Source: Elsinoe ampelina
Taxonomy: Eukaryota
Direction: 5' to 3'
NCBI GenBank assembly: GCA_010093995.1
Contig: ML992511.1
Coordinates: forward strand, 425,316-489,315
DNA length: 64,000 bases
Shown here in pieces: positions 10,730 to 64,000 of this stretch; within the stretch, counting starts at the first letter, position 1; every line of letters starts with the position of its first letter. A model generated the notes under the pieces. That model was not told the DNA's origin. It searched no databases and saw only the letters and a list, made by a program, of their open reading frames with translations. A program made the translations under genes and the position numbers.

Positions 10730-10940
10730 TTTATAAATTCTTATTATAATAATACTATAAGTAATTCTATTATTCTTATACTAGGTCTTATTTCTAACCT
10801 TATAGAGTACCTTAGTACCTTTACTAGTATCTAGGGCTAGTTCTTTAGGCTTTATAACTACTAGTATCTAGTTAATACTATAAATTATATATCTAAGTAT
10901 ATCCTTTTTAAGGAGAGTGTTACGAACTGTCTAAACATAG

Positions 10941-11403
10941 TGTTACGAACCGTCTAAATATAGCCTACACTAGTAGTCTAAGCTAAGCTAAGAACGAGGT
11001 AGTTCTACTTCTATAGTAGTATAGCACTAAGTTAAGAGTCGAAGAAGATATATCTTATAGATAATAAAGTACAATTAGATAGTATTATAAAGGCTAGCCT
11101 TAGTAATACTAGTGTTCGCTATCTAGATAAGGTTAACTATAGTACTTATATAAGGTAAGGACTATTCCTATATATATATATTCTCTATTACGTTCTCTAT
11201 ATACTCTATATACTCTATAGCAAAAGCTAGAGGCAATATAAAGTACACATCTACTAGTAACCTACACACTCTATAGTCTCAAAAGTAGAGCTACTAGAGA
11301 AGATAGAGAACTAGGTAAATGTCGGGCCGAATTACGTAATAACCTTAGTAGTTTAATTAGTCCTAACGTCCCTATACTCTAGCTATCCTACTAGTTTATA
11401 ACA
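10941..11403 (-). repeat. 3' LTR of Gypsy family B
   Basis: TGTTACGAAC...TATAACA; matches 17505-17967 and 61978-62431. Confidence 0.9.
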
Positions 11404-11477
11404 TTACTCTCCTTCTTTAATCGAGTTGTTCTAACGAGTAAGTGTCCTTCCTTATCTTCTTACGCTATATACTAAAT

Positions 11478-12090
11478 ATGCCTCCTAGTTATTAAAGGCA
11501 TAGTAAATCTAGCACATCTATACGAAAGAATCTTTTAGAGTTTATTGAACTATTTAGAACTAATATGCCGTAGGCTTATTCTCGTTACAAATCGAAGAGG
11601 CTAGATTATAAGGTCTATATTTAGTTAGGTATCTATAGCTAGTGTATTATAAGTAACTACTCGAGTTATAACATTTAGGTAACAAAATCGAAATAGTAGT
11701 GTCTCTAGTCTAAGTATATTCGTTTACGAAAGGAATTAGTTATAGTAGAGGCTACTAGAAAGAAAGCTAAAGAGGCTTATAAAAAGGCAAAAGAGGCTTA
11801 TTAAAGAGCTATAGGTAATAAGCTTCGCCTACGCGAAGAGATATAGAAATTAGAGAATAAGGTATAGAAAGTAATTTCTCTAGAGGAGACCTATATTCGA
11901 GTCTTAGAGTAGGAGGAAATACTATCGTTAGTAAATCCCGTCCTTCTATAGAATTAGTAATTATTTATACTTAACTCCGATTAGGGCTCTCGATTTAGTA
12001 ACGATTAAGGTGCTTCTATTAGCTAAGTAACCTTCCTTAGGCATTCTCGTTTTTGTTTAGTATTAGAAGTGCTAGGTCTGTCTAGTTAGT
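11478..12090 (+). pseudogene. RIPed antisense ORF in Gypsy B: Zn2Cys6 binuclear cluster + coiled coil (3' end approximate)
   Basis: Intact ATG at 11478. In-frame codons at 11577/11586/11607/11634/11643/11667 (TAT, TAC, TAT, TAT, TGT, TAT) give C-x2-C-x6-C-x8-C-x2-C-x7-C after TpG>TpA reversal, followed by helical RLRKELVIVEATRKKAKEA...LRLREEI*KLE. The same ORF occurs in the second copy from 62506. Confidence 0.75.
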
Positions 12091-15000
12091 TTGCTTAGGA
12101 TAGGTTCCTAATCTAGTAATCTAGAATTATTTACGAGGTAAGGTACTTCTCTAGTTCCTATGTTACTTCGCTATACTAATGTCTCTTCTAGTAAATAAGA
12201 TAGTAGCGTTTTTCTTTAATAAGTTTATAACGTAAAACTCTTTCGATCTTATACTATAGTTCCTATGTTTCTTTATTTAGTTCGATAGGTCTAGGTATAG
12301 TATTCTATAGTGCTTTCTCTAGTAGTAATATATAAAAGACTAGATAGATCCTTATATATCTTAGTAGTTCTAGTTTGTATATGTTCTTGTTTTTCTTTTC
12401 TAGGATCTTAAAGGGTCCTAGTTTAGTGTAGTTAAGTTTCTTACTTAGTTGTTTTATTTTAATGTTTTTACTAAGGAGGTAAACTTTCTCTCTCTCCTAT
12501 AGAATTAGTCCCGTAATTCTCTTCTAGTTAGTAAACTCTACTATTCTCTATAATATAAATAATATATCGTAGTATAGCTAGTTGTATAGTTTCTTAATGT
12601 TAGCTACTAGTATATTAGTATCCTTAGATATTAGCTTAATTCTAAGTATGTTATAGTATAGATCTAGGTATATTCTATAGTTTATATAGAATAGTAAAAT
12701 TCCATTTGCTAACTTTCTATTATTAATAGCGAGCTCTACGAGTAGTAATAGCGTTACCTATAAGTCTTACTTATAGTTTAGGTAGTATTATAGGTACTAC
12801 TCTAGTACTTAATTTGCCTGTTTAGTTTATCTATCTATCTATAGATAAAAGGAGGTTAATAGCTTATATTTAACTCCTAGTAGGTCTATAAATAATTACT
12901 AGAATTATAACGTAAATAGCTTATTTCTATTAGTTATTAGGTCTCGTAGTACTCTATATTATAAAACAATTATTTAGAGAAAGACAAAGGCTATATCCTT
13001 AGCTATTACTATTGTCTTATATAGCACGAAGTAGTAATACTTTATAAACCTATCTACTAGGACTAGGATACTATTATACTTTACACCTATAAGAGGCTCT
13101 TCTAATAGCGGTAAAGGTCCTATAAAGTCTATCGTAACTAATTGCTATAGTTTGTTAGGTAGTAGTAAGAGTTATAGTAGGCTATACGGCTTGTGTCGTA
13201 AGTGCTTAGACTTGTAGCATGTATTATATATAGCAATATATGTCTTAATGTCGTTTTAGAGTTCTTTCTATAGGTAGTTTTATGTAATAAGCTTAATAGT
13301 CTTATTAATCCTACTATATTCTACTATTAGGTTATTATAGTATATTTAAATAACTTCTTATTTCTATTCTTATATAAGCTCCTAGGTAAGGCTATATAAC
13401 TACTCTACCTTCGGGTACTTATAGACTAAAGCGCCGTCTTACTACTTTAGTATAGAGGTCTCTATTATCGTTATATTCTTTAAGTAGTCTAGTTGTCGGC
13501 TAAGAGCGTCTACTCCGCTGTTCTCTAATCCCTTAATATAGTAGATCTAAAAGTTGTAGCTTATAAGTGTTTCTAACTATCGAACCTGTTGTCTATTAAG
13601 AACCTTAGTTATTATCTAATATAGAAGGTTCTTATAGTTAGTATAGACTTATACTAGTAAGGTTGTCTCTTCTAGGTATACTTTCTACTTATAGAACGCT
13701 TCTATAATTGCGAGTAACTCCTTGTTATATATATCGTAGTTAAGTTTAGGTCTAGTTATTTTTCGTAAGTAGTATACAATTAGGTAGCGTCGTTCTTCTA
13801 TATCCTTCTATACTAGATACGCTTCTATTGTAAAGTCCGAGGCATCTATTTCTAGTAGTACTTATTAGTCTAGGTCGAAGAGTACTAGGATAGGTACTAT
13901 TATAAGCCTAAGCTTTAGCTCCTTAAAGGCCTACCTATATTTCTTGTCGAAGATAAAGCTAGTATCCTTTTTCGTAAGGTTAGATATTAGCGTAGCTACC
14001 TTAGAGAACCTCTTAATAAACTTATAGTAGTAGTTAAAGAACTCTAGTAGCGCTTAAACCTCCTTAACCGTTATAGGTTCTAGCTAGTTATTTACTAACT
14101 TAATCTTCTTTAGATCGGGTCTAATACTATTAGTAAATATAATATAGCTTAGAAATTATATCTTATACTTATAGAACTTACACTTAGAGAGTTTTACTAG
14201 TAGGTCTTTCTCTTTTAGTTTCTATAGTACTTTATAAATATGTCCTATATATTTGTTATATATCTTTAAGAAGATAATAATATTGTCTAAATATGCTAAG
14301 ATAAAGTTATTAAGGTATTCTTATAAAGTGTTATTAATTAACTCTTAAAAGGTTATAGGAGTATTAGTTAACCTAAAGGGTATAACGAGGTACTTATATA
14401 GGCCCTATTACGTTCTAAAAGCTGTTTTCTACTCCTCGCCCTCCTTTATTTATACTTAATAATAGGCGTCCCTAATGTTAATTATAGTAAACTATTTAGC
14501 TCTAAGTAGTTAGTCTTAAAGTTCGTCAATCCTTAGTAAGGGATAGTAATTCTTCCTAGTAAGTGTATTAAGTTTCTAGTAATTAATGTATATTTATAAT
14601 ATTCTATCCTTTTTTAGTACGAAAAGCACTCTATATACAATAGGTAATTTTAATAGTTATATAAATCCTTTAAGTAAGTACTTATCGATATAGTTCTTAA
14701 GGACATTCTCCTCTTATTTCGATAGTAGTATAAGACCTTAATAGTGTATTAGGGATTTACCCTCTTTAAAAGGTATTTCGTAATTCTATAGTTTATATTA
14801 GAGTAAGGCTATAATACCTTCTCTTTCCTTAAATAAGTCCTTAAAGTCTTTATATTCCGGCGGAAGTACTTAATTGCTTATACTAGCGATAGCCTTAACT
14901 ATTAGTTATACCTATACTATTCTTATAGTTAGTATCTATAGAGCTAATTATACTCCCTACGTTCTATAATTATACTTAGGAAATTCAAGTGTTTCTTTAA

Positions 15001-17504
15001 TCTAGTCTACGTCTAGATTATGTTATTAAAGCTAGTCTATACTAAGTACTATATTATACTATATATTAACTATATTAATTAATTATTTTTCCGTGTATGT
15101 TTCGATTTAGATTATAACGTTTCGTAGTTCCTAAGTAACTTTCCCGTTCTTCCCTATAGAGGTTCTATCCGCTATAGTAAGTAGGTAAGGTAACTCCTTC
15201 TAATATTAATAAGGTTTAAGCTAATTAGTAACTGTCGTAGAGACGTAGCTATAGTTAGCTCTCAAATCTATTATTACTCTTACCTTATTTTCTTATATCT
15301 AGACTTCTAGTATAAAGTAATTTAATATATAGATCTTTATTATATTAAGGCTATAGCTAGTGTTGTTGTCTTACCTTATTAGGTAATAACTAGCTAGTTT
15401 TTTGTTATTATAGCTCCTTAGATAAGTAGCTAATCCCTTCCTATATATATCTACTATTAGTACTATATCTATTAGGTAAGTCGTGTTTTATTATTGTTTA
15501 ATATAGCGAGGTAAACTTCTAGCGCCTAAGTCCCTTAGTAACTATAAAGTCTAATAATCCTCTACTAATTACACTAAGTAATATTATATACCTATATCGG
15601 TATAACTATTCTCTCCGGATAGAGCTATATATTAGCGTTAAAGACAAACGCGAGTTAAGTAGATTCGTCTTATTATGTCCTATTCTAGTAGTAGATATAT
15701 ATTATTATATAATTTCTCTATATTCCTATAAGGTATACTTTAAGTCGTCTACCTAGTAGTAGTATATCGTCGTCGTTGTTATTATTAGATAAGTTCTTAT
15801 CTATGTTATTATATTATAGTTGTTTAGTATATTCTTTATTATATTTCTCTTCGTTGCTACTGCCCCTAGCGTAGTTATAGTTAGTAAGGCTACACTAAGT
15901 ATACTCTTATACTTAGCTATAGGGAATAGTACTACCTATCTTAATTACTAAGAAGTCTATAGTATATTTAAGACTAATAGTGTCTTCTCCGAGTATATCG
16001 TATAAGTAGATAGAGTAGTACTATTTGTAATTTAGATTTATACATTTCTAGAGCGATATATAATATGCCTTTCCTTATAGTTTACTATAAGGGCTAAAGG
16101 TAAAGCTACTATATTATTATATAGCACTTGCGTCCTAATACTTCGTCTTAATAATTGTATATTAATAATTGTCGCTAACTACCTTCTAAGGTTAGTTAGT
16201 GTTACTACTAATTATAGAGAACTCTTCTAGGTCGAGTCTCTAGTCTAGCTATTTTGTTAGTTGCCTATACTTAGATAGCTTATATAGAAACTAACTAGAT
16301 CCCTACTTGTCTAATAAGTAAATATAACAAGAGTTATTATAATATACTATCTATAATAGCGTTGCATATTAGCTTTATTATTTACTATTAGTTATAGAGA
16401 TATCTAGTATAATATCTAGAGAGAATTCTCTTGTCTCTCGAGTTGTCGTAGACTTCTTCTATATTTCCTTACCTATGCTAAAGGTCGTTAGGTCTTCTAT
16501 AGTAGTGTCGGCCTTTTTTTTTTCTACTAGCCTAGTAACTATTATATATAATCTATCGGCTAGTGCCCCTTATTAGTAGTCCCTAGCCTAATACCTAGGT
16601 CTTTTACACTTAAAATATAGATTGTCTCGTCTATACTTCTCTCTCTCTTTTCTACTAAGGAACTTTCCTTTATAGCTACGGCCTTATACCTATAAGGAGT
16701 AACCTTCGTATATAGCGTTAAGTTCTATAGAGTCTCTATAGTTTCGAGAGGAACGCGTATATCTAGTGTTTACCTTATATTCTCTACGACGTTCTATACA
16801 TCGTTTATAAAGTTAGTTATTAATAGTAATTATAGTATCTACTAGTTCTTAAAGACTATTAGGTAGCTTAGGTATTATCTAGTCTTTAACTAAGTCGCTT
16901 AGTCCTTAGTAGAATACTAAATGTTTAGTACTATTATCCTAGTCTAGGTGCATTACGAGTTGTTAGAACTAAGAATAGTACTAGGCTATAGACCTATGTT
17001 ATTATAGTTATTAGATCTTTGTCGTAGCGACGTATTCCTCGTTAGATACGTTAAAGACCTACTTAATCTTTGCCTAAAAGATGCTAAAGCTCTTAAAGAT
17101 AGCCTTTATATCTAGGCTTAGTTATCTATCTAGGTAGCTACTTATATAAGGCTTAAACTACTCGAAGGTAGCGCCTTTAAGGTGTATTCCGGCATAGAGA
17201 ACCTTTACTACGTCGTTAGCGTATTTATCTCTCTCTAGAGCAAAGAAGGCTTTAAGTTAGATAAGGAAGTGCCTTAAGTAGGCGTAGTTCCTATAGAAGG
17301 ATTCTACCTCTAGCTTAGGCCTACTTCGTTCTTCCCCTATACTAAAAGACCTTTAGTATTTACTCGAGGTTAAACTAGTAGTAGATATGTCGTTAATAGT
17401 AAGCTTTCCTAGCTTACTAGTAATTAAAGATACTAATAGTAACTTAGAGCGAGAGTTACTTATTAACCTCGTAGCGTACTATACTATAGTAAGGGTAGTT
17501 AAAA

Positions 17505-17967
17505 TGTTATAAACTGTCTAAATATAGTCTACGCTAGTAGTCTAAGCTAAGCTAAGAACGAGGTAGTTCTACTTCTATAGTAGTATAGCACTAAGGTAAG
17601 AGTTAAAGAAGGTATATCTTATAGATAATAAAGTACAATTAGATAGTATTATAAAGGCTAGCCTTAGCAATACTAGTGTTCGCTATCTAGACGAGGTTAA
17701 CTATAGTACTTATATAAGGTAAGAACTATTCCTATATACATGTATTCTCTATTATATTCTCTATATACTCTATATACTCCGTAGCGAAAGCTAGGGGCAG
17801 TATAGAGTATATGTCTACTAGTAACCTACGCGCTCTATAGTCTCTAGGGTAGAGCTACTAGAGAAGATAGAGAACTAGGTAAATGTCAAGCTAGATTACG
17901 TAATAACCTTAGTAGTTTAATTAGTCCTAACATCTCTATACTCTAGCTATTCTACTGGTTCGTAATA
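17505..17967 (-). repeat. 5' LTR of Gypsy family B
   Basis: TGTTATAAAC...TTCGTAATA, 463 bp, colinear with 10941-11403. Confidence 0.9.
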
Positions 17968-24682: not shown

Positions 24683-27600
24683 ATGCCGTCTGACATTCGA
24701 AGCTTCTTCGGCGGCAAACCACCTGCGGCTGCACAACCAGAACCAGAGAAGCCGAAGGTACATTTGGTTCCACAAGCTTCACACAGGGGGACGAGCTAAT
24801 TCCGGTCATAGAAAGCTGCGCCAAAGAAAGGTCGAGGCGCACGAAAGGTCATCGAGGAAAGCGACGAGGACGAACCAGCTCCTCCTCCAACCAAGGCTCC
24901 CAAGAAAGCTGCAAGTCCCTTGAAATCGAAAAGAGCTGTCACCCCAGAAGGCGAAGACACTACCTCCGCAGATTACTTTGGCAAGAGTAAACCCAAGCGT
25001 TCAGATCCTGGACGCATAGCTCCCCCGCCGAGATCCAACGGCACGAGTGGCGCGAGGACACCCGTGAAGGCAACAACCAAGACCAATGGCACAGCAGTCA
25101 AGTCAGAAGTGAAGACACCTTCAAAAGCGACGCCCGCAAGTGCTCGATCAACTCGAGGCAAATCTCAGGCTTCGTACGCCGACGATTTGAATGAGGACGA
25201 CTTTCCGGACGACCTCGAAGAAGAGGAACCCGTCAATATGGCGAAATCAACTCCCACAAGCAAGAAAGCCGCTGCAAGCAGCCGTAATGGTACCGCGAAA
25301 TCTACTCCTGCGTCGACTCGGTCGAAGCGTGCGAAGAAGGAGGATATCGACTATGGTGAGGACGAGGATGTCGACATGCATGATGTTGACGATGACTTTG
25401 TGGTACCGGACGAGGACGAGGAGATTGTGAAGAACAAATCTGCCAAGGCAAAGAGAGCCTCCGCCGGAACGAAGAGAAAGGCTGTCGACATGGACGATGA
25501 TGAAGAGGATGAGACACCTAAGAAGGGACGGAAGACTGCTTCAAAGGCTAAGAAGCAGAAGGACGAACCTGTCGAGGACAGTGAGGCGATCAAGTCTATC
25601 ATGTCGAGCATACCCACGGTCAGAGCTCCTACACCCCCGCCCGATAGTCTCGACGCGGATGGGAACAAGTTTAAGCCGTACTTGGCGGGTAGCAAGAACC
25701 TAGCGACTCCGGCCGGAGCTGGATCCAAGGAGATACCAACAGGAGCTGAGAACTGTCTTGCTGGTCTCACATTCGTGTTCACGGGAATTCAAGAAACACT
25801 GGGTCGTGAAGAAGGTCAAGCACTTGTCAAACAGTACGGTGGAAAGGTCACTGGTGCGCCATCGAAAAAGACCAGCTTCATTGTGCTCGGAAACGACGCT
25901 GGTCCCAGCAAGTTGAAGAAGATCAGAGAGTTCGGTCTGAAGACAATCACCGAAGATGGGCTCTTCGAATTGATCAAGAAGCTTCCAGCGAATGGTGGAG
26001 ACAGCAAGGCCGCTGCCGCATTTCAGGAGAAACAAGAGAAGGAGCAAGAGAAGATCGAGAAGGCAGCCAAGGAACTGGCTGCTGAAGAAGCAAAGATTGC
26101 TGCCGAGCAGAGGAAGCTTGCCGCTGCGAGGGCTAGTGCCCCTGGAGCGGCTGACTCGACTGCTAAGGGCAAGGAGCAGGCTCCCGACACTCGCCTCTGG
26201 ACTGTCAAATATGCACCGACTCAGCTATCACATGTTTGCGGCAACGGTACCCAGGTCAAAAGGCTTCAGGTCTGGTTGCGTGACTTTCCGCGTAATCTCA
26301 AGGTCGGTTTCAAGAACCCAGGCAAAGAAGGAATGGGTACAACACGAGCTGTCCTGATTTCCGGTCCCCCTGGTATCGGAAAGACTACTGCAGCTCATCT
26401 CGTCGCAAAGCTGGAAGGTTATGACATCGTCGAAAGCAATGCCAGCGATACTCGCAGCAAGAAGCTGGTCGAGACTGGGCTGAAAGGTATCCTCGACACA
26501 ACCTCTCTTCTGGGCTATTTTGCGGGCGATGGGAAAGACGTATCTTCTTCGAAACGCAAGCTATGCTTGATCATGGACGAAGTGGATGGAATGTCAGCAG
26601 GTGATCGTGGTGGTGTTGGTGCTCTGGCCGCAATCTGCAAGAAGACCAGCATTCCCATCATACTTATCTGCAATGAACGTCGACTGCCGAAGATGAAACC
26701 ATTCGACCACGTCACGTTTGATCTGAAGTTTCAAAGACCAACCACGGACATGATTCGCGGTCGCATCATGACCATCATGTTTCGCGAAGGCATGAAGATG
26801 CCTCCTCCAGTCGTCAACGCTCTCATTGAGGGCACTGGAGCAGACATTCGTCAAGTTGTCAACATGATATCCACTGCAAAGCTGGACGACTCGGCTATGG
26901 ACTACGACGACAGCAAGAAGATGTCGAAGGCATGGGAGAAGCATATCATTCTCAAGCCATGGGACATCATCGGCAAGATCCTGAACGGTAGTATGTTCAG
27001 CACTTCCAGCAAACACACTCTCAACGACAAGATCGAGCTATACTTCAACGATCATGAGTTCAGCTATCTCATGCTGCAGGAGAACTACCTCAGCCCCAAT
27101 CCACTCAAAGCCCAGGGTCAGCCAAATGACAGGCTGCAGAGGCTCAAGACCCTCCAACTTGCCAGTCAAGCCGCAGATAGTATCTCCGACGGCGATCTAA
27201 TCGATCGGATGATTCATGGATCCCAACAGCAATGGTCTTTGATGCCATCCCACGCTATCTTCTCCTTTGTTCGTCCAGCATCTTTCATGGCTGGAAACAT
27301 GGGATACAGTGGTGGCACGAGGTTCACAGCCTGGCTGGGTCAGAACAGTGCTCAGGGTAAGCTTATGCGATATGTGAAGGAGATCCAGGGACACATGCGT
27401 CTTCGCACGACCGGCGATCGTCATGAAATCAGGCAGCAGTATTTGCCTATACTATGGGCCGAGCTTGGAAAACGCCTGGAGACGGAGGGCAAGGATGCCA
27501 TCGAAGAGATGATCGCGCTGATGGACAGCTATTACCTCACCAGGGATGACTTTGATGCCATACTTGAGCTGGGGGTAGGTCCTCACGCACAGGATGGGTT

Positions 27601-28000
27601 GAAGATCGATAGCAAGGACAAGTCGGCCTTCACGCGAGAGTACGTCGATACCAATTGCTTTCTCAGCATCATTTGCTAACAGTTGTGCAGGTACAACAAG
27701 CGCGACCACCCTCTACCGTTCATCAAGGCTTCGAGCGTGCAGGCACCCAAGAAGCTCGGCAAGGACAAGCCTGATCTGGAGGAAGCGATTGAGGAATCCG
27801 ATGAGGAAGAGGTGGTCGACGTCAAAGAAGAGGACGACGAGGATCTCGATCTGAGCAAGGACAAGTACGTCAAACAGCCGAAGAAGAAACCGGCCGCCAA
27901 AGGAAAAGCATCCAAGAAGGCAGCGGCTGATGACGAGGACGATGAGAAGCCCAATAAGGCCAAAGGGAAAGCGGCTCCGAAGGGCAAAGGGAAGAAGTGA
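24683..28000 (+). CDS. RFC1: Replication factor C subunit 1
   Basis: MPSDIRSFFG start, BRCT domain (LAGLTFVFTG...GGKVT), AAA+ Walker A GPPGIGKT, DEVDGMSAGDRGG, RFC1 C-terminal domain; introns 24758-24811 and 27640-27690. Confidence 0.97.
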
Positions 28001-47448: not shown

Positions 47449-50070
47449 CTATCTGTTCGTGGTAGCCGCGTCTTCGAAGGTCTTCCGTCGTACGAGCTTG
47501 TGATCATCCTCCCATGTCCATCTCAGGACTCTACGTGTTCCATCAGCCGGATTGTAACCAAACAAACGACAACAAGGCCATAGCATATAAATCCGTACAG
47601 TGTCGCACAAATAATAGGTACTATACGGGAGCCACCAGGTGTGGTACCGCCAGGCCCGCACCCTGTTCAACCCACGTCGTGCAGAGTCCAGGTCCCTTGT
47701 GTTCATGTGAGACTGGAGAGCCCATTGGAGAGATAGCAGAACGATGGCTGCCCCGGGCATCACCCCGCCAGAGATTGCGCTTTCGAACCAGAGGAATGAG
47801 CTCTTCGCTTGTTGACCGAAGAGACTGGCTTCGAAGTCGAGATATGCGTTCTGGCCTCGAGACCAGGTTCTGGACAGGCATGCGCAGGTCATGAAACCTC
47901 CTGTGGCATTGGCGAAGACGACGTAGAGCAGCCAGCCAGTGTTCATGATTTCGAGGGGGAGGATGAGGAATCTTTCCAGCCGGATAATGGTAGGACTGCG
48001 TTGGAGGAATCGGGGTGCAATGACCTTGGAGGGAGGTCCAGAAGATGGAGGTCCATCCTGGGCGCTATCAGACTCGCGCAAGTTTGTGGACTGCTGGTCT
48101 TGTGGACCGATATCTGCTCCACTTCCAGCAGTATTTCTGGTAGGCTGCGAACATTCGTCTTGGGGAATGGAAGCTGGATCTTGTGCGCCATCCGATTGGA
48201 AATTTGAGGTGTCTGTAACGTTTGGCGCATCATTTGTGAGCTTCGTGACAGTTGCATGGTTGCTGACTCCTTGATCCATGGTTGGCGAAGTGGGTTGAGG
48301 TTGGCTCTGATCATCACTTCTTACGTTCCCACGCGCCACGTCTTTGTCTCTGTCTTTCTGTTCGTTTGGCATCATTTGCGTCGGTCTGAGCCATGATTCA
48401 TCGGCGAAAGCTCCACATGGCTGAGTGGCGAGAGGCCATAATGCCAGTTCAATCAAACCGAGAGACAACGTAGCTACCAGATATATGAGATAGCTCCCAC
48501 TCCGACAGCCTAGGCCAATTTCCGGAGTGTAGTATGCAACAATGATAGCAAGAGTGCAGCTTCCGCCAACGATAACAACGGCGGCTACCAAACTCCAGAG
48601 GTCAGCTGGGCGTTGTAGCAGCCTCGACTTGCAAGACGAGGACCCAAGCACTAGGTGTGCCCAAGCAGAACCAGAGTCCTCCAGCCAATTGCGCCTACCA
48701 GGCTTGTATCTACCATTATCGCTTGGAAGTCTCCCAGCGTGGGTGTATTCGACGTCTGAGCAGATCGCGTGAGCGATACCGGTGTGCCACCGAACTCGGC
48801 CTTGTCCAGCAAAGGAATGGAAAATGGGAGCACTGGAGGTAATGGCGATTTGCTGATTATTTGTCCGGTCTTGCCGTCTGTGCTTTCCACCACAGCGCCG
48901 AGGATGTTCCAAGTTGACATCTGCTGCCAGTAATTGGTGGCAGAGCTGTCGGACGTTACAAAGCATGTCATCGATCGACTTCTCCGTCATGACCATATTC
49001 TCAGGATGGTACTTCTCTTTGATAATACAGGAGAAGTTGCTGAATATAGTGTCGTCCACTAGCGACCGCACGACTGATCCAACAAGCTCATTGAGATCGC
49101 TGATATCCTTGTCCGAGTCTGTGGGGTTTCTGTCAACCATCGATGCAAGCACAAATATAGGTGTCCACACGAGAAAAAGTCCGAGTGAGAAGCCTTCATT
49201 GAAAGAATCGTACAAAGTGAGTCCGAGGGCCACTGAGAACCAAAAGGTGGATGCCAAAACCGGAATCACAGCTTTCTTACGAGCCTGTCGCAATTCGGCT
49301 GCAAGAGCTCGTCGAGCCTGCTGTACGTTTCGTGCGTGATGGGGGCACTCGCAATGAGGACGCAAGTCGAGGTCTTGTGCAAACAAAGCAATACGGAGCA
49401 ATGCAATCAGACCACTCTGCGTGCCATTGCGAGATCTTGCAGGACCAACCACCGCCACATGTCGAATCGTGTACTGGTTCATGATCCCAAGAATGAAAAG
49501 GGAATCTCGCATGTCATGAAATTGGTCTTTGAGCAGATTTATTCGGTGGGCATCCACTGTGTCAGTGTCTTGTACGTCGCTGGTCGATTCTGGTGTATCG
49601 ATGTCGACCGACATGTCAGCTGGCGAGTGTTAGTCATTTCCAGTGCATATGCGAATGTCTTACTCATCAGGGCACAAAGACCTAAAGTCCTGATGCTCCA
49701 AAGCACATGGTATAGAGACATAAGTGGTGAGCCCAACCAGCGAAATAGCACAAGCACGTTTCTGCCGGCTTTGTTGGACTCGAATGGTGCTTGCGATCTG
49801 CCACCGTTGGCCAGTGGCTATATTGATTTGGATCATCACTTACATTACGGCTATTATTGGGAGGATCCACGTCAGTATTTGATCCGAAGTAAGCTGAAAA
49901 TCGTAGCGTTCTGGACCACTGCCGCACAGTTCTTGACAACCTGTGTATGTGATAAATGAGCGTCCTGCTCTTGCGACCGGGGCTGCGTAGACATAGCTTG
50001 ATATCCTCGGGTCATCAGCATCAATGCCTGCCTGAAAGGTTTGATAACACGATGTAAAATTGACAGTCAT
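47449..50070 (-). CDS. Multi-pass membrane protein of unknown function
   Basis: Exons joined by GTAAG..CAG introns at 49798-49843 and 49620-49663; C..LCG.G, TWILP...QAPFESN...RWLGSP, YYTPEIGLGCRSG; several TM helices. Confidence 0.75.
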
Positions 50071-50672
50071 GATTGACTCTTCACAGACGACCTGCCAGGA
50101 ACATCTGAGGGAAAGAGACTTTGCACGTCGGGATACAGTCTATGCATGAACGCCACTTCAGCCGCTCTCAGTCCCAATAAAGCTCAACGATTGGCAAATT
50201 GAAGCCCGTGTTGTGACACTCCACGTGCAGACATGGTCGATACTACCATTCTCCAGTGATCTTGCAGAGCTCTACGCAGTGTTTGCACGTATCTGCCATG
50301 TCATTGGTCATGATTGATGAGCCTGCGACATCCATGACTTTTTGTAGAAGGGGTCGACGGAGGAGAAGAAGCAAATGGATGGTACTCTGCTACTGGCCGT
50401 TTCGGGTGAATGCAGGCACGAAACCAACTGACGTAAGCGGCACCGTGGTTGTGCACTCTGATATGTGGACAACCGTAGCGCCGGTGAGCATGGTGTTGCA
50501 TCACATGCAAGCTGGAACTTGAGACGGTCGGTGCATCCCGCGACTTGGTCACACGAGTTCTTCCATCTCCTCCAGCAGATCGCCCATCCCACTTTTGCAG
50601 ACCCTGTCGCTCCTCCTGCACATCACCGACTTGACAAAAGACCCATTGAGACCTTCAATCGTAATTTGAGCC

Positions 50673-51342
50673 ATGTCGTACGCAGATGTCGCCGCCAGCG
50701 GGCCCAAGCAGACCGAAGAAGAGGTAGGTCCTTATCAGGATCGCGATACATGCATTCATGCTAACTCGACGCAGAAGTAAGTGACACGAAATTGTCCGCC
50801 CAAAGGAGCGTCGACTGACCTGGTCTCCCGCTAGGCGCGCCCCTGCGGTGCCCGAGATCCGCCATGAAGAATCTAGCGTCTCTTCGTTGATCGATGTCGA
50901 CAGCCCACATGTCTCTTCTGTTCCCTCCGACTTCGACACCCAATCCATCAAGACCGACACTCAAGCGGATCGCGAGCGCCTTGAGGCCGAGTCGCGCCAG
51001 AAGGTCGAGGAGGCAAAGGAGAAGGCCGGTGTCAAGAAGCAGCAGGCAAGGAACAAGGCCAAGCAGGCGGGCCAGACGCTCAGGGACAACAGCGACAACC
51101 CGGTCGTGATTGGAAACGCTGTGACAATCGCAGCTCTTGGTGGTCTGCTCGGAATCGGCGCTTACAGGAAATACACGGAGGGGACCTTCACCTGGAGGGT
51201 TGCAGGTCTGTGGGCTGGTGCCGTTGGGCTGTTTGGTGTTGCCGACTACTACGTTTCTCAGTAAGTGTTGGCAAAGCTGGGAGATACGTAAGTTGATATT
51301 GACCTTCGCAGGTACTTCTTCAAGAGATATCCCCCCAAGTAG
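50673..51342 (+). CDS. OM14-like mitochondrial outer-membrane protein, with a 2-nt microexon
   Basis: MSYADVAASGPKQTEEE-K-RAP, SLIDVDSPHVSSVPSDF, DNPVVIGNAV, C-terminal TM segments; exons 50673-50723, 50775-50776, 50835-51260, 51312-51342. Confidence 0.8.
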
Positions 51343-51783
51343 AGCAGATGTCATCGTCAGGGGAGGCGCAGGATTGGGGTCACGGAGGAAACAGTGGACA
51401 TCTCTTCTCTTTGTTTCAGAATCGCAATGGTAGTTTTGGAGCCTGGTGGGTGAGTTACCCTCTAGCAATAGAATCTTGGACGGTACCAGAACGGAACGCG
51501 CCGCTAATGATCAACTCTTCAATCTAACAATCAAACTGTGCAGACATGTAGACCGTGCAGGATCGGAGCGGCATTTGCCAGGGGGGCGTTCTGGTAGGTG
51601 CATTCACAAACGGAGCTCCTGCCTGAAACCCAGCAGGCGGCAGCCCACATGTCACGTGCGTCATGCAAACTCACCACCTGCTTTGAAGCTTCGTCTTCGT
51701 CCTATATTCCTTCATTCACCTTTCACCAGCTTCAAACTTCTATCAACATCTTTTGCAATTCACAATCGCTATCGCACAGCAGC

Positions 51784-52834
51784 ATGGCGCCGAACAAGCC
51801 TTCTGGCTCGCGACCTTCGCTTCCTCGCCAGGCAAAGACTAACGTGCAGTCTTACGCAGGCCAGGATGGTCCAAGTCATCGCGTTACAAAGAAGCGCTCC
51901 AAAGCGAAGACCACGACAGCGGCCACGCCGATCCCTGCACAGCAGCCACGACCCCGCGTAAGAAGGGGGGTTATACGTCTACCGACTCAGGTCCAAGCAA
52001 TGCCTCCTCCTCCTCCACCGCCGGCGACGCAGAATCCCCCCCAGCGCGTATATCCGGGCCGTCGCCCACGGCCACGACCAGCTGTGCCGACCATGCCCTT
52101 GCCCCTCGTCCAAGTCAGGGCCCGGACCACCGCGGCTCCTGTTCCTCCCCCTGCTTCAAGGCCGCCTTACTGCCAATTGTGTGGTGATGGTGGCGAAGAT
52201 ATGGAGCTTCTCAAGCAGGGCGACGTGCCCGAGGCATGCAGCAGCCATGTCTCATCCGCTTGCAAGCCATGCGTCATCCGCCACGCTCGCTCAGCCTTTC
52301 AGCGTGGATCTCTTCCGCACTGCGCATTCTGTGGCATCAGGTGGGAGTTCGGGCAGGCCGCTATGCTCTTTGACGCCGCGGAAACAGAGATTTTTGAAAG
52401 TCGCCTATCCAATCGCGCCATCGAGACCGACCCAATGTTCCGCTGGTGCGCGCAGGACAAATGTCCGTCCGGTCAAATCTACGTCGCCGACCTCGTCACC
52501 GAGGATCCAAAGGTCTGTTGCAACAGCTGTGAAAGCGTCAACTGTTTCTCGTGTCGTACTATCTGGCACGAAGGTATCAGCTGCAAGGATCACCAGGACC
52601 CTGTGAAGAGGGAAGAGGCATTGCTGAAGGACTACAAGGAGACTCTTGGTACTATGCGCAAGGCTGTCACAAAGAGGTGCCCGACCTGCGGCTGTGGGGT
52701 TGAGAAGACGGATGGATGCAATCACATGACCTGTAAGTGCTGATGTTGTCGCTGACCGCTTCTTGAAGATCTAACTTGCATCAGGCGCCAACTGTAGCGC
52801 CGACTTCAATTGGGATCTTGCATCAATAGTGTGA
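51784..52834 (+). CDS. RBR-type (RING-IBR-Rcat) E3 ubiquitin ligase-like protein
   Basis: RING1 (CQLC...C.SH...CKPC...CAFC), IBR (FRWCAQDKC...C..C....CFSC...WHEGISC), Rcat (KRCPTC...EKTDGCNHMTC); intron 52733-52784. Confidence 0.88.
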
Positions 52835-53499
52835 AGGAGGTGCCTTTATTCTACGACAGGTGATCATGAAGCGATGAAAGTGTGGATAAGATGGACGACG
52901 CTGAACTGCCACGACACAGTGGCTTCAAGACAAAAGGGTTGTGGGACAGTGGCCATGACATGACAGGCTGTGGAGTCTCCACATTCTCACCAGTGCATAC
53001 ACCACGGGGTGAATAGGGAGGCATGTTCTCGTCGGGCAGGCGATGACGACCATGCCCAGCGGACCAATAATTCAAGAGCAATGTTTTAGCGAGTATGATA
53101 ACAGTATGAGAAACCGAATCAGATATGCTTCATCTTTTACAGTCTTCTGAAGCCCGGCCCTGACAATCAAAGATCAGGGTCTCGATGATGGGCGAATTCG
53201 GCAGGAGATGGTTGAAGTTTTGGTGACAGCGGCCGCGGTTCCAGAAGGACACAATCTTTTATCTTGCAGGACTTGCGGAGCCTGGTTTGACCCTTGCAGA
53301 AAGCGCACCAATCGTTTCACCGCCGGACAAGCTTACAGTCGTTTGGAGTTCAACCGAGCTACCCCGGGCTTGGCGGTACTCTTTACCAACTTCTGCTTAC
53401 TAAAATTAGCTAGCTAGAAGTCTATAGAGAATACTATAGAAAATATTAATAAATTAAAGCTAAAAAAAGGTATAATAGTTACTATACTACTCTAATTAG

Positions 53500-58100: not shown

Positions 58101-59739
58101 CTAAGTAAGAGGCTTCTATTCTAGCTCTTATATAATCTCTTAGTTAAGAAGCTTAAAGTGCTTAAGAACTATCTCGAGACTACTTAATTAAATAAGTAGA
58201 TTAGGCGCTCTATAAGCAAGGTAGGTACTTCTATTCTATTCGTACCTAAGAAAGATAGTAGTCTACGCTTATACGTAGATTATTAGAGCTTAAACGAGGT
58301 AACTATTAAGAATTGCTACTAGCTCTTACTTATTAGTAAGATGCTTAATTAGCTCGGGTAAGCCTAGTAGTTTTTAAAGTTAAATCTTAAAGATGCCTAC
58401 TATAGGATCTCTATTAAGCGTAGTAACAAGTAGAAGACTATATTCTATATATACTATAGCTATTTTAAGTATCTAGTTATACTCTTTAGATTAACTAACG
58501 CCCCTACTACCTTTTAAGCGTATATTAACAAGGCGTTAGAGGGGCTAGTTAATAACATCTATATCGTCTACCTTAATAATATTCTTATCTATAGTAACTT
58601 AAGGGAGAACTATATATACTATATATATAAGATTCTTACGAGACTATAGAAGTTTATATTGTATACTAGCCTTAAGAAGTATAAATTCTTCACTAAGGAA
58701 GTAGAATTCTTAGGCTATATTATCTCTACTATAGGCGTCTTAATAGATCTAAGTAGAGTAACTATAATTAAGAATTAGCTAAAGCCGAAAAGCTATTATA
58801 AAGTCTAGTAGTTTATAGGCTTTATAAACTTCTACTAGCGCTTTGTATAATACTACTCTAAGATTATTACTTCTCTCTCTAGCCTTCTTAAAGGCTTAGT
58901 TAAAGGTCGTAAGTATAGCTCTTTTATATAGGGTATAAGCAAATAGTAGACGTTTAAGAACATTAGGGATGCCTTTATACGTGCCTCTATTCTCTATTAC
59001 TATAATCCTACGCTGCTTCTACGTATTAAAAGCGATATGTTAAAGTTTATAGTAGCGGCAATTCTATCCTAGCTATTTAATAGTGCTTAGCACCTAATTG
59101 CCTTTTAGTTAAGGAAGTTTGTCCTAGCTAAGTATAATTATAAGACGTATAACTAAGAGCTATTAGCGATCGTATATATATTTAAGTAATAGTAATACTA
59201 CCTCGAAGGTGTCTTATATATAATCTAAGTACTTACTAACTATAATAATCTCTAAGGATTTATAAAGCTAAAATAGCTAAACGGCTAATAAGCTTACTAG
59301 GCTACCTTTCTTACTACTTTTAACTTTATAATAGAGTATTAGCTAGGTATAAGGAACCTAGCTAATACACTCTCGAGGCGCCCTAACTATATAGCGAAAG
59401 AGTAAGAGGTGTTATATCTCCTTTCTACTCTTTAGAATAAGCTTTATATATAGGACTAAACTACTAACGTTAAGGAAGCTATCTTACTTATTAGATATAT
59501 CTACGCTATATACGAGGCTACCCTAGAATAGGCCTAGGCCGCCTATATACTATATAGTAGCGACTTCTCTTCTAAGAACTTCTAGAGGCTTATAATAACC
59601 TAGCGAGTTATAGTTATAGTAACTATAAGAGAGGATCCCTTTAAAGATCTATCTACTAACCTAATATTAGTAGTAGAGCTACTATAGGGATAAGACCCCG
59701 AGATTATAAAGCTATATTTGTAAGTAGGGAGTAGTAGAG
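55110..59739 (+). mobile_element. RIPed Ty3/Gypsy element (family C): gag, protease, RT, RNase H; interrupted before integrase
   Basis: CCHC knuckle (Y.SY.K..Y....Y, ~57319-57360), protease FLIDN...VNLIS (~57567), ILFVPKKD.SLRLYVDY, YLNNILIYS (58569), RNase H Y.TY.*ELLAIV; 5' boundary approximate. Confidence 0.85.
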
Positions 59740-59846
59740 TAGAGTAGTTTTTAGGTTAGGTTAGGTACTAGAATTGCTACCTATAACCTAATCTATAGCG
59801 ATACTAGTACCTAAAGCTTAGTAACTGTAACTCTCTAAGCCTTAGG

Positions 59847-59926
59847 TAGTGTTACTTAGCCTTAGGTATATAGTTAGTTATAGTGTTACTTAGCCTTAGG
59901 TATATAGTTAGTTATAGTGTTACTTA
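59847..59926 (+). repeat. 34-bp tandem repeat, ~2.3 copies
   Basis: TAGTGTTACTTAGCCTTAGGTATATAGTTAGTTA at 59847-59880 and 59881-59914, partial copy at 59915-59926. Confidence 0.9.
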
Positions 59927-60018
59927 TAACACTACCTAATAGTACCTATAGGTACCTAAGAGTTAAGGAGTAGATATATATCTTAAGAACTTAAGATTTA
60001 GAAATTAAAATTCAAAAG

Positions 60019-60685
60019 TTAAAGGTTATAATTATGTTTATTAATTACGCTAATCTTGCTAGCACCTCCTATCTACTCTTATAGCCTACGCCTTACTTAC
60101 TTATTTACCTTTATAGAATAATTGTCCTTACTATAAACTGTCTAATTGTTCTAGTTATATATATTAAACTTTGTATAATAGCGACAAGCAAGCTATAAAT
60201 CTTTCTAGTTAATAGTAACTTACTTAGTATAAATACAATTAAGGTTTATGTCTAAGAATATTAGTATCTATAATAGTATTAAATTTAAACAATAGATACC
60301 TTCTATATACCTAACAATAAATGTCTCTATTACTTCCTAAAGTGCTTTAAGAGCTTTAGATTAGATATAAAAGCTTTTACCTTAACGAATATAGTCTCTA
60401 ATAATCTTATAGACAAGGCGGCTAAAGGAGAGCTTATAGTAGAGAAGTTTAGTTAACTTCTAGTAGCGATAAATCTCTTAGAGAGTAATAGCTACATAGT
60501 ATTAGTAATGTAACGTAATAATCAATTATAATAATTATACTACTAGCCTTAAACTTGTTCTTCTTTCTAGGAGCAATAGTTGTCTTATAAAGTTACTTAG
60601 TAGTAGAAGTCTTAGGTCTACTAGACGACTTACCCTTATAACTACAACTATAGGTTAGTACTATAGTACCTCTCTTAGGAGGCAT
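60019..60685 (-). pseudogene. RIPed histone H3-like (CenH3-like) gene with two introns
   Basis: Exons 60685-60541, 60491-60300 and 60251-60019 (GT..CTAAT..TAG introns, both phase 1) read MPPKRG...KFKAS-T-ITL*EIYRY*KLTKLLYYKLSFSRLVYKIIRDYIR*GKSFYI*SKALKAL*EVIETFIVRYIE-D-INLNCIYTK*VTIN*KDL*LACR. This is the H3 fold (GTVALREIRRYQKSTELL..KLPF.RLVREI...ALQE..E......EDTNL..IHAKRVTI..KD.QLARR) after C>T/G>A reversal. Confidence 0.9.
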
Positions 60686-61323
60686 AGTTGCTATTACTAC
60701 TAAGGATAGAGTCTTAGGAGGTGCTTATAATATAAAGTAATCTTGTAGTAGTAAGGGTAAGGTAGTAGAGGGTATAGAAAGTAACAAGGTAGATATAGTA
60801 GTAGTATAAAGAAAGATAAGTAGAAAGAGAAGAAGTAAAAGGGGTAGAAGAAGAGAAATGTATAATAAGAAGAGAAATGTATAATAATTTAGTAGCTAGT
60901 AATAGCATAGCTAATAATAGGAATATAATATTATAATAGAAATGTAAAATTAGCAAATTAGAAATATATAGTATATAGAATACTTGCTTATTATAATATC
61001 ATTTATAATAGTAAGGTATATAATATTAGATTTGTTTAAACGCTTAGAAGAAGAGAAATCTAAACATTATAGAGTACTAATAATAAGTATATAATAATCT
61101 AGCGTAATAATATAATACTAATTTAGTATACTATAATTCTTAAAAACCTTATATTTTATATTTTATATTCTACCCTAGCTACCTTATTGTTACTTTATAT
61201 ATAGTAGAAGGTTATATTACTCTTCTCTATTCTCCTTCTTCTTCTATTAACTTTCTTTCTTCTTGTCTCTACTACCCTTTTGTTTCTACGCCTTTAAGTT
61301 TAACTTTTATATCTTATTTTACT

Positions 61324-61977
61324 ATAGCAACCTCTCTAGATACTTCTATAGCTAATATACCTTCCGATACCTCTTCTAGTAGCTCTTCTAAGATTAAGAA
61401 TAAGTTTAATAAGTTTAAAACTATAATAGAGATAATTATTATAGCGTTTTATTATAAGTATTAAGCTAATAGGTATAGGGCTTTAGGTCTAAGTAGGCTA
61501 AAATTAAATACTAGATCCTTTAGCGTAGTTAAGGCAGCAAGGCACATTACGGTTGTCTAACTAGTTTTAAAGCAGGTTTAAGTAAGCCTTTAAAGTAGAA
61601 TATTTAGAACATTATACGCCGAGATAAAGATACTTAATAGTCGGCTAAGGTTAAGGTACTTAAAGTAGCTAGAGATGCTAATTGTAGCGCAAAGAGGAAT
61701 TTGCTTAAGAAGTTTAATATAAATACTTAAGTCTAGAACCTTAGTAAAGAAGTAAAGGTAGAACTCCTTATAGAAAAGATTAAGGAAATAGAGTAGCGCT
61801 ATTTCGACGCCTAGTAAAGCTATATAATTATACTACTATATTATTACGTTTAACACTAATAGATTATAGATAAATAGCTATCTAGCAAGTTTAGAAAAGT
61901 CTATGTTAAATAGTAGCGCATTAGAAAATTTGCTACATATTAAGAGTATATAGAAGTCCTTATAAAGGCAAAGGTAG
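61324..61977 (+). pseudogene. RIPed acidic/coiled-coil gene divergent from the H3-like gene, interrupted by a Gypsy B LTR
   Basis: ATA (from ATG) start, then ATSLDTS..N.PSDTSSSSSSKIKNKFNKF (from ...EIEDEFDEF); a second frame gives IIRRDKDT**SAKVKVLKVARDANCSAKRNLLKK...VELLIEKIKEIE*RYFD. Exon structure not resolved. Confidence 0.5.
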
Positions 61978-64000
61978 TGTTACGAACTATCTAAACATAG
62001 TCTACGCTAGTAGTCTAAGCTAAGCTAAGAACGAGGTAGTTCTACTTCTATAGTAGTATAGCACTAAGGTAAGAGTTAGAGAAGGTATATCTTATAGATA
62101 ATAAAGTACAATTAGATAGTATTATAAAGGCTAGCCTTAGTAATACTAGTGTTCGCTATCTAGACGAGGTTAACTATAGTACTTATATAAGGTAAGGACT
62201 ATTCCTATATATATGTATTTTTTACTATATACTCTATATACTCTATAGCGAGAGTCGGAGGCAACATAAAGTACATGTCTACTAGTAACCTACACGCTCT
62301 ATAGTCTCTAGAGTAGAGCTACTAGAGAAGATAGAGAATCGAGTAAACGTCGGGCTAGGTTACGTAATAACCTTAGTAGTTTAATTAGTCCTAACGTCTC
62401 TATGCTTTAGCTGTCCTACTAGTTCGTAACATTACTCTTCTCTTTTAATTAAGTTATCCTAATAAGTAAGTATCCTTTCTTATTCTTCTACGCTATATAC
62501 TAAATATGTCTCCTAGTTATTAAAGGTATAGTAAATCTAGCATATCTACACGAAAGAATCTCTTAGAGTTTATTAAATTATTTAGAGCTAACATGCTATA
62601 AGCTTACTCTTATTATAAGTCGAAAGAGCTAGACTATAAAGTCTATATTTAGTTAGGTATTTATAGCTAGTATGTTACAAGTAACTACTTAGGTTATAAT
62701 ATTTAAGTAACAAAATTAGAATAGTAGCGTTTCTAGTCTAAGTATATTTATTTACGAAAGGAATTAGTTATAGCTAAGACTACTAGAAGAGAAGCTAAAG
62801 AAGCTTATAAAAAGGCAAAAGAGGCTTATTAAAGAGCTATAGGTAATAAGCTTTGCCTATATAAAGAGATATAAAAGTTAGAGGACAAGGTAGAGAAAGT
62901 AATCTCTCTAGAGAAGACCTATATTTAAGTCTTAGAGTAGAAAGAAATACTATTATTAGTAGATCCTGTCCTACTATAGGACTAGTAATTATTTATGCCT
63001 AACTCTAATTAGAGTTCCTTATTTAGTAACAATTAGGGTGCTTCTATTAGCTAAGTAGTCTTCCTTAGGCATTCTCGTTTTTATTTAGTATTAGTAGCGT
63101 TAGGCCTACCTAGTTAGTTTACTTAGAATAGGTTTTTAGTCTAGTAATCTAGAATTACTTACGAGGTAAGGTATTTCTCTAGTTCCTATATTACCTTACT
63201 ATACTAATGTCCTTTCTAGTAGATAAGATAGTAACGCTTTCCCCTTATAGATTTATAACGTAAAACCCTTTTAATCTTATACTATAGCTTCTATGTTTCT
63301 TTATCTAGTTCGATAGGTCCGGGTATAGTATTCTATAGTACTTTCTCTAGTAGTAATATATAAAAGACTAGATAGATCCTTATATATCTTAGTAGTTCTA
63401 GTTTATATACGTTCTTGTTTTTCTTTTCTAGGATCTTAAAGAGTCCTAGTTTAGTATAGTTAAGTTTCTTACTTAGTTGTTTCGTTTTAATATTTTTACT
63501 AAGGAGGTAAACTTTCTCTCTCTCCTATAGAATTAGTCCTATAATTCTCTTCTAGTTAGTAAACTCTACTATTCTTTATAATATAAATACTATATTGTAG
63601 TATAGCTAGTTATATAGTTTCTTAATGTTAGCTACTAGTATATTAGTATCCTTAGATATTAGCTTAATTCCGAGTGTGTTATAGTATAGATCTAGGTATA
63701 TTCTATAGTTTATGTAAAATAGTAAAATTCTATTAGCTAACTTTCTATTATTAATAGCAAGCTCTACGAGTAGTAATAGTATTACCTATAAGTCTTGCTT
63801 ATAGTTTAGGTAGTAGTATAGGTACTACTCTAGTACTTAATTTGCCTATTTAGTTTGTCTATCTATTTATAGATAAAAGGAAGTTAATAGCTTATATTTA
63901 ACTCCTAGTAGGTCTATAAATAATTACTAGAATTATAATATAAATAGCTTATCTCTATTAGTTATTAGGTCTTATAGTACTCTATGTTATAAAACAATTA
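61978..64000 (-). mobile_element. Second copy of Gypsy family B (3' LTR 61978-62431, antisense Zn-cluster ORF from 62506, chromodomain, integrase; continues beyond the window)
   Basis: Colinear with 10941-~12970, differing mostly by transitions. Confidence 0.93.

Follow-up and report, generated by a model that had tools for sequence, protein, structure and literature searches.

Histone H3-like genes carried by transposons are already known from the literature of 2013 (PMC3538342) and 2019 (PMC6710886). Manning et al. (2013) described a 5.6-kb hAT transposon of Pyrenophora tritici-repentis that carries the gene H3L (PMC3538342). According to the sections of that paper that deal with the element, it holds three genes, namely the hAT transposase, a central ORF and the intron-bearing H3L, and H3L was placed in neither the H3 nor the CenH3 group (PMC3538342). 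Dhillon et al. (2019) reported H3 copies that had been captured by hAT elements and inactivated by RIP in Pseudocercospora fijiensis as well as in five further species of Mycosphaerellaceae (PMC6710886). As described there, the copies are intronless retrocopies of the host H3, with exon-exon junctions, present once or twice per ~9.5-kb element, and the account of that element reports no similarity to the one from Pyrenophora (PMC6710886). In our full-text literature search, none of the papers listed connected Elsinoe to an H3 carried by a transposon.

Here we analysed a 64,000-nt stretch of the Elsinoe ampelina genome (contig ML992511.1, positions 425,316 to 489,315), referred to below as the window. 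It has a gene block of 54% GC at about 18.5-53.2 kb and AT-rich blocks of 29-31% GC on both sides. RIP is marked by a high TpA/ApT ratio, a low (CpA+TpG)/(ApC+GpT) ratio and an excess of C>T and G>A changes, read against the customary thresholds. The AT-rich blocks give ~2.0 and ~0.18 for the two ratios, the GC-rich gene block 0.53 and 1.30. The gene block also encodes a replication factor C (24812-27679) whose protein sequence is 95% identical to that of Elsinoe batatas, 85% to that of E. fawcettii and 77% to that of E. australis. The left AT-rich block contains runs of N at 458-467 (10 bases) and 1288-2037 (750 bases), which represent an assembly gap or a masked stretch, and an apparently full-length LTR retrotransposon at 10938-17965, with ~460-bp LTRs (TGTTACGAAC...GTTCGTAACA) at 10938 and 17505 and a second copy starting from 61978.

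The first-pass annotation of the window, made from the letters alone, had proposed a spliced, three-exon H3-like gene on the minus strand, and Pfam, phmmer, a profile of intact relatives and shared introns all bear this out. We place the gene at 60151-60685. Exon 1 (60541-60685) encodes the MPPK... tail and contains one TAA stop. Intron 1 (60492-60540; 49 nt, phase 1) follows ...K-A-S / KPG and has the same position in the metagenome loci L001, L003, L040, L041, L006 and L036, which are introduced below. Exon 2 (60300-60491) runs from the end of alpha-N to alpha-2, including SFSRLV and a loop 1 with three extra residues. Intron 2 (60252-60299; 48 nt, phase 1) falls between FE and D, again at the same position in six intact relatives, where it measures 47-49 nt. 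Exon 3 (60151-60251) comprises alpha-3 and the C-terminal ...LACRYYTKF, with its stop at 60153-60151 and an acceptor, cttag/AC, that corresponds to ctatag/AC in L003. The Pfam Histone family (PF00125) matches exon 2 at 60307-60486, and its score against the stop-to-X read-through of the gene (P0001), E 1e-4 and 23 bits, does not reach the curated cut-off of 26.4 bits. A phmmer search with the same read-through against 1.84 billion representatives gave 590 matches at E<=1e-3 and 18 at E<=1e-10, and those of the matches that were inspected were all of H3 type. The profile built from the six intact relatives matches the gene's frame at E 2.2e-20 and 62.5 bits (12 frames, two AT-rich blocks).

The diagnostic residues had also been read correctly: the predicted protein starts MPPK, has S at the Q68 position (SFSRLV), a loop 1 three residues longer than that of canonical H3, I at F84 and the sequence xVTINxKD. 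A C-terminal extension of about 50 residues reaching to 60019, by contrast, has to be dropped, given the ends of the homologues, the stop at 60153-60151 and the further stops beyond it. In the five relatives that reach their own stop (L001, L003, L040, L041 and L036), the protein ends 6-14 residues past the RYYxK motif, and the stop in the window is equivalent.

The gene bears heavy RIP damage. Its indices over 60151-60685 are 1.93 for TpA/ApT and 0.30 for (CpA+TpG)/(ApC+GpT), and the frame is broken by nine stops, one in exon 1 and eight in exons 2-3, all of them TAA or TAG. In comparisons with six intact relatives, we counted 46-66 C>T plus G>A changes, 9-15 reverse transitions and 58-77 transversions. 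The earlier statement that the differences of this gene are largely RIP-type transitions thus holds for their direction, where the asymmetry is clear (46-66 versus 9-15), but not for their bulk, given 58-77 transversions. The intact relatives also have the I at F84, the N in VTIN and the Y that replaces H in NxIY; these residues characterise the family and do not stem from RIP. Between copies in the public sequencing run X1, 983 of 1042 variant places are transitions. With 28% GC after RIP, nine stops in H3L and a retrotransposon cutting it short, the hAT/H3L copy in the window is dead, and its H3L is a gene without activity, a RIP-killed and truncated relic.

We then asked to which family this relic belongs. 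A profile of H3L proteins scores 89.7 bits against the window, compared with 72.5 bits for a CenH3 profile and 66.0 bits for canonical H3. The last is the lowest of the three and, together with the lack of an ARTKQTARKS tail, of Q68 and F84 and of a ...LARRLRGERS end, upholds the earlier reading that this is not canonical H3. The closest matches share ...NxN(A/C)I(H/Y)AKRVTI(Q/N)xKDSxLAxRYYxK(F/L/Y) and PFSR(L/V)V with the window gene, and uninterrupted read-through ORFs among them carry an in-frame intron at its FE/D place. The C-terminal LAxRYYxKF is common to the window and to P0004, P0019, P0021, P0111, P0036 of Boeremia and P0024 of Alternaria. Members with a species name come from Boeremia exigua, Alternaria gaisen, Pyrenochaeta sp. 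and Elsinoe australis; B. exigua has four H3L paralogues of at least 90% identity on four contigs, with an MPPK start. Raw identity of the RIPed window protein is 43-56% to H3L, 53% to canonical H3 and 47-51% to CenH3, a measure that fails to separate the three because of RIP noise. Used as a query, Boeremia H3L gave results swamped by canonical H3, and its N-terminal tail alone retrieved only itself. The link to the published family comes from P0023, which has the same exon sequence as the Pyrenophora protein PTRG_00559.1 (PMC3538342, supplement file 1). This makes the window gene a homologue of the published H3L, and the Pyrenophora hAT system named in the first-pass annotation was the right family. 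Separately, the Elsinoe australis protein P0139 (TKX22580.1), annotated as a 115-aa 'histone H3.1/H3.2', is of H3L type and free of stops (PFSRLV, FRIQKSAIEALQE); its gene model seems to extend into intron 2, and it may be an un-RIPed copy.

Several features of the gene had been taken as hallmarks of the centromeric histone. On such a reading, a mobile element would have captured CenH3/CENP-A and carried a centromere-type histone. The resemblance is real, as CenH3 proteins of related fungi can likewise begin with MPP, have a lengthened loop 1 and replace Q68 by S or A. In the Dothideomycete CenH3 proteins P0113 (Lineolata rhizophorae) and P0084 (Lojkania enalia), Q68 has become S or A, F84 is replaced, loop 1 is longer and the tail can begin MPP(K/Y). 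Furthermore, the CenH3 profile scores above canonical H3 on the window (72.5 versus 66.0 bits), and read-throughs of the CenH3-like P0007 and P0009 have the intron at FE/D, where one canonical fungal H3 read-through (P0076) is uninterrupted. The diagnostics themselves (loop 1 +3, S at Q68, I at F84 and an MPPK tail) are all present in the window gene, but they vary within H3L, with 0 to +7 residues in loop 1 and any of F, I, M, V or W at position 84, and are not specific to CenH3.

To place the gene, we built a tree of 43 histone-fold rows and 95 columns, leaving out the rows in which no fold start was detected, namely P0023, P0053 and seven provisionally CenH3-like rows (P0067, P0046, P0099, P0102, P0097, P0128 and P0073). 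The closest neighbour of the window in the tree is P0068, the H3-like protein of Pyrenochaeta (92/90), and a branch (71/97) has all 13 H3L rows together with the window on one of its sides. A clade of its own (87/84) is formed by six CenH3-type proteins of Pezizomycotina, of which UniRef names two CSE4. A tree constrained to include the window in that clade is worse by 27.4 log-likelihood units and is rejected by the AU test with a p-AU of 0.0127, for a group that was named post hoc. Neither RWQSQA nor RGAWGGLG, two motifs of the CenH3 matches, occurs in H3L; the CenH3 matches have ends of the ...RGAWGGLG type, whereas the window gene ends ...RYYTKF. CenH3 is an essential single-copy host gene whose product localises to centromeres, whereas the window gene is a multicopy, transposon-linked pseudogene. 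CenH3 proteins are not known to have a MARTKQTARKS-type start or GGKAPRK-like tail segments. Intact H3L members, in contrast, start MARTKQTARKS (L001), MARTKQTARRS (L003) or, in the published Pyrenophora sequence, MARTKPRPK, and they keep GGKAPRK-like segments. These canonical-like starts point to a canonical H3 ancestor from which H3L would descend. Given the 17-bit advantage of the H3L profile, the separate clade and the AU result, a CenH3 origin is very improbable, and the ancestry first proposed for the gene is not retained. The position of H3L outside both H3 and CenH3 agrees with the placement given by Manning et al. (PMC3538342).

Intact copies, which the first-pass annotation had proposed to look for, were found among JGI metagenome contigs. 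Scanning these with an alignment of five family members yielded 46 loci, 10 of them colinear including the intron. Three contigs of 5.6-6.1 kb, L001 (of which L002 is a fragment), L040 (with L039) and L041, are complete hAT elements. Each has inverted TAGGCTGGCAAA... at both contig ends followed by GGGTTGGG repeats, a Dimer_Tnp_hAT domain (E 4e-19 to 6e-20) on the opposite strand about 2 kb from H3L, and the full set of hAT transposase, ~240-aa 'central ORF' and H3L. Among the colinear loci, these same three contigs are the ones whose upstream DNA exceeds 4 kb, so that transposase and inverted ends occur in 3/3 of such loci; the transposase ORFs are 43-66% identical between intact elements. 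The pair of central ORF and H3L is present in L006 and in the L003/L004/L005 locus as well. Across six distinct H3L lineages, both introns lie at the same positions (6/6) and exons 2-3 are free of stops (6/6); the comparison of intron positions that had been suggested thus shows the window's introns to be those of all six intact relatives. As a side observation, L003, L004 and L005 are near-identical contigs of about 55% GC, whose H3L starts MARTKQTARRS, with R at the K9 place. No transposase was found in a further 1.3 kb upstream or in 5 kb downstream of these loci, which may represent a non-autonomous or host-resident copy.

With these relatives in hand, the DNA around the relic can be read as part of an element. 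A TIR-like terminus, RIPed, lies at 59740-59766 (plus strand, pattern match) at the H3L-proximal end and is followed by AGGTT-type subterminal repeats. A RIP-tolerant TIR pattern has this one match in the window, against 0.01 expected, for a pattern written post hoc from the same site. The site is 411 nt past the H3L stop, and the contigs L001, L040 and L041 end 343-385 nt past the end of their H3L match. The window holds one TIR-like end, the second hAT end and the 8-bp target-site duplication being beyond it, and a repeat search for TIRs at 53-64 kb gave only low-complexity chance pairs. Within the subterminal region, a perfect 34-bp tandem duplication occupies 59847-59914 (two copies, 100% identity), and on one contig of organism C the unit is single, with a joint that skips 34 nt.

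On the other side of H3L, an intergenic region (60686-61478) separates it from a divergent RIPed pseudogene of the central ORF at 61479-61977 (plus strand), a layout that is the same in L001, L040, L041, L006 and L005. A tblastn match at 61653-61808 (E 0.10), weak in itself, was the first pointer to this gene and was later confirmed by a profile of five intact central ORFs, which matches at 61479-61976 (+) with E 2.2e-14 and 43.1 bits, its sole match among 12 frames. Of the 239 positions of the profile, the first 165 are matched, and the match is cut where the LTR of a retrotransposon starts, at 61978. This Ty3/gypsy-type LTR retrotransposon lies within the hAT element and runs from 61978 out of the window at 64000 on the minus strand; it is 89% identical to 10938-12972, its LTR begins TGTTACGAAC and recurs at 10938 and 17505-17965, and Pfam places an SH3_Tf2-1 domain at 63338-63518 (minus strand). 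The neighbour on the left, with reverse transcriptase and RNase H at 58242-59318 (plus strand; RVT_1 E 3.5e-14, RT_RNaseH_2 E 1.2e-13), is a separate, RIPed Ty3/gypsy-type element.

The window copy is cut at 61978, short of the place that the transposase occupies in intact relatives. Pfam found no hAT transposase at 53-64 kb (E<=0.1), the best score of hAT transposase profiles in the window was E 0.58, and tblastn with all ORFs of 120 aa or more in ten H3L-bearing loci found nothing in it below E 0.048, or below 0.17 for the transposase ORFs. Because the window lacks a transposase, the class of the element rests on homology with the intact relatives. With the central ORF and the TIR-like end flanking H3L, 59740-61977 very probably represents 2.2 kb, from the end next to H3L, of a hAT DNA transposon of Pyrenophora type in the Elsinoe genome, the remainder of which lies past the retrotransposon, outside the window. 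That a mobile element carried this histone had been proposed at the outset, and the adjoining second cargo gene, the TIR-like end and the complete hAT elements among the intact relatives speak for it; the status of H3L as transposon cargo is supported.

The architecture and size of L001, L040 and L041 are those described for the 5.6-kb Pyrenophora element, and the published Pyrenophora H3L resembles the window family in PFSR(L/V)V and in EDCNxNAIHAKRVTIQxKDSxLAxRY(Y/F). The Elsinoe case differs in its host, which belongs to the Myriangiales and not to the Pleosporales, and in its condition, the window copy being heavily RIPed, truncated by an LTR retrotransposon and without transposase whereas the Pyrenophora copies are described as intact and nearly identical. 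The tails differ too, MPPK... in the window against MARTKPRPK... in the published sequence, and loop 1 in the window has three extra residues.

The Mycosphaerellaceae element is the other described system from which the window copy might come, as an intronless host-H3 retrocopy on that hAT family. The outcome is the same, in that a Dothideomycete has RIPed H3-like copies on a hAT element, in many copies and in AT-rich blocks, with all extra copies killed by RIP in the published case (PMC6710886). The elements described there are, however, intronless and ~9.5 kb long, which by the published description sets them apart, while the window keeps both introns (49 and 48 nt) and the Pyrenophora-type central ORF. 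Because that case concerns intronless retrocopies on unrelated elements, as far as its description goes, we consider this origin very unlikely for the window copy.

A further alternative is that the gene is an ordinary pseudogene of H3 or an H3 variant, present once in the genome and damaged by RIP leaking from neighbouring repeats. In the 64-kb window there is indeed only one H3L copy and no transposase. Public sequencing runs speak to the copy number. In run X1, a 26.5-kb contig that matches 50000-53375 with 0 differences has a depth of 223.4, which served as the single-copy reference. Summed depth over 59807-61674, for contigs at least 80% alike, is 5357-7979 in the same run, or 24-36x single-copy. 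In organism B, whose single-copy flank is about 90-93% identical, the depth ratio is about 80-98 in run X3 and 39-56 in run X4. Single variant sites (60420 and 60627) are overlapped by 4-11 contigs per run in X1 and X3 and by 3-8 in X4. Summed contig depth is a rough proxy and not a copy number, so we read these figures solely as tens of diverged copies, which fits the earlier suggestion, drawn from the RIP damage, that the gene is multicopy. The depth in X1, the higher depth in organism B, the several contigs with transition differences per site, the adjoining conserved cargo gene followed by a TIR-like end, and the fact that the intact relatives are complete hAT elements all stand against a lone pseudogene, which we regard as extremely unlikely.

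In organism B, depth is higher in the bin that follows 59340-59806 than in that bin itself and remains so until about 62.1 kb, and past 61977 the reads continue into a consistent different sequence, the LTR family being nearly absent there. That LTR retrotransposon reaches a summed depth of 370-525x single-copy in X1, whereas organism B has 0-41 depth units of it. In run X6, from organism C, short contigs are 80-95% like the H3L piece (59735-61885), and none matches the neighbouring single-copy genes; these contigs place the element family in a genome further removed, which either inherited it from a shared ancestor or received it by transfer.

Taken with the intact relatives, these observations are consistent with the following course of events. 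The intact element would have measured 5.6-6.1 kb, with TIRs (TAGGCTGGCAAA...) and genes for a hAT transposase, for the central ORF (~240 aa) and, divergent from the latter, for a three-exon H3L. It presumably multiplied by cut-and-paste hAT transposition, after which RIP would have killed the copies. The LTR retrotransposon inserted at 61978 parts the piece in the window from the rest of its element. The window itself is of little weight, as another RIP-killed repeat in an AT-rich block. It does extend the host range, since Pyrenophora-type elements, or relics of them, then occur outside the Pleosporales as described so far, in Elsinoe.

More can be said of the intact copies. Their H3L has a dN of 0.29-0.42 with dS saturated. 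For 5 of 15 pairs a dN/dS could be calculated, and it lies at 0.15-0.30, which suggests that H3L is a functional transposon gene under purifying selection. Between intact elements, alignment is limited to the coding parts, with DNA about 60-67% identical. That the divergent pair of H3L and central ORF stays intact at only this identity argues that the cargo serves the transposon. The H3L tail differs from that of H3 around K9 and K27 in most lineages. Tentatively, and with the balance of probability somewhat against it, hAT/H3L could be an old and widespread Dothideomycete lineage (Pleosporales, Myriangiales and metagenome fungi), whose H3 variant and partner ORF would be selected transposon proteins and not an accidental transduplicate; the variant could be borne in nucleosomes at or near the element and there change host silencing or targeting, maybe jointly with the partner protein. 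If this is true, the Elsinoe relic shows RIP ending hAT/H3L invasions. A histone variant encoded by a transposon would be a direct handle on the manipulation of chromatin by mobile DNA, better studied where copies are intact.

The central ORF gave few leads. Pfam offered no usable family for it, the best match (E 0.018) being confined to a single member, PDB sequence searches gave none better than E 0.07 and an ESM Atlas feature search had no usable match. Its AlphaFold model is all-helical (pLDDT 69.7, pTM 0.36), and the best Foldseek match to that model has an E of 1.6. In the intact elements, the same motif opens both intron 1 of H3L and the intron within the divergent central ORF: GTAAGTTATCACAG, 4-6 bases and TTATCACA, at 4908(+) and 3989(-) in L001, 5348(+) and 3983(-) in L040 and 1899(+) and 994(-) in L006, and at 5137(+) in L041 and 363(+) in L036. 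Intron 1 in the window resembles a RIPed version of this motif.
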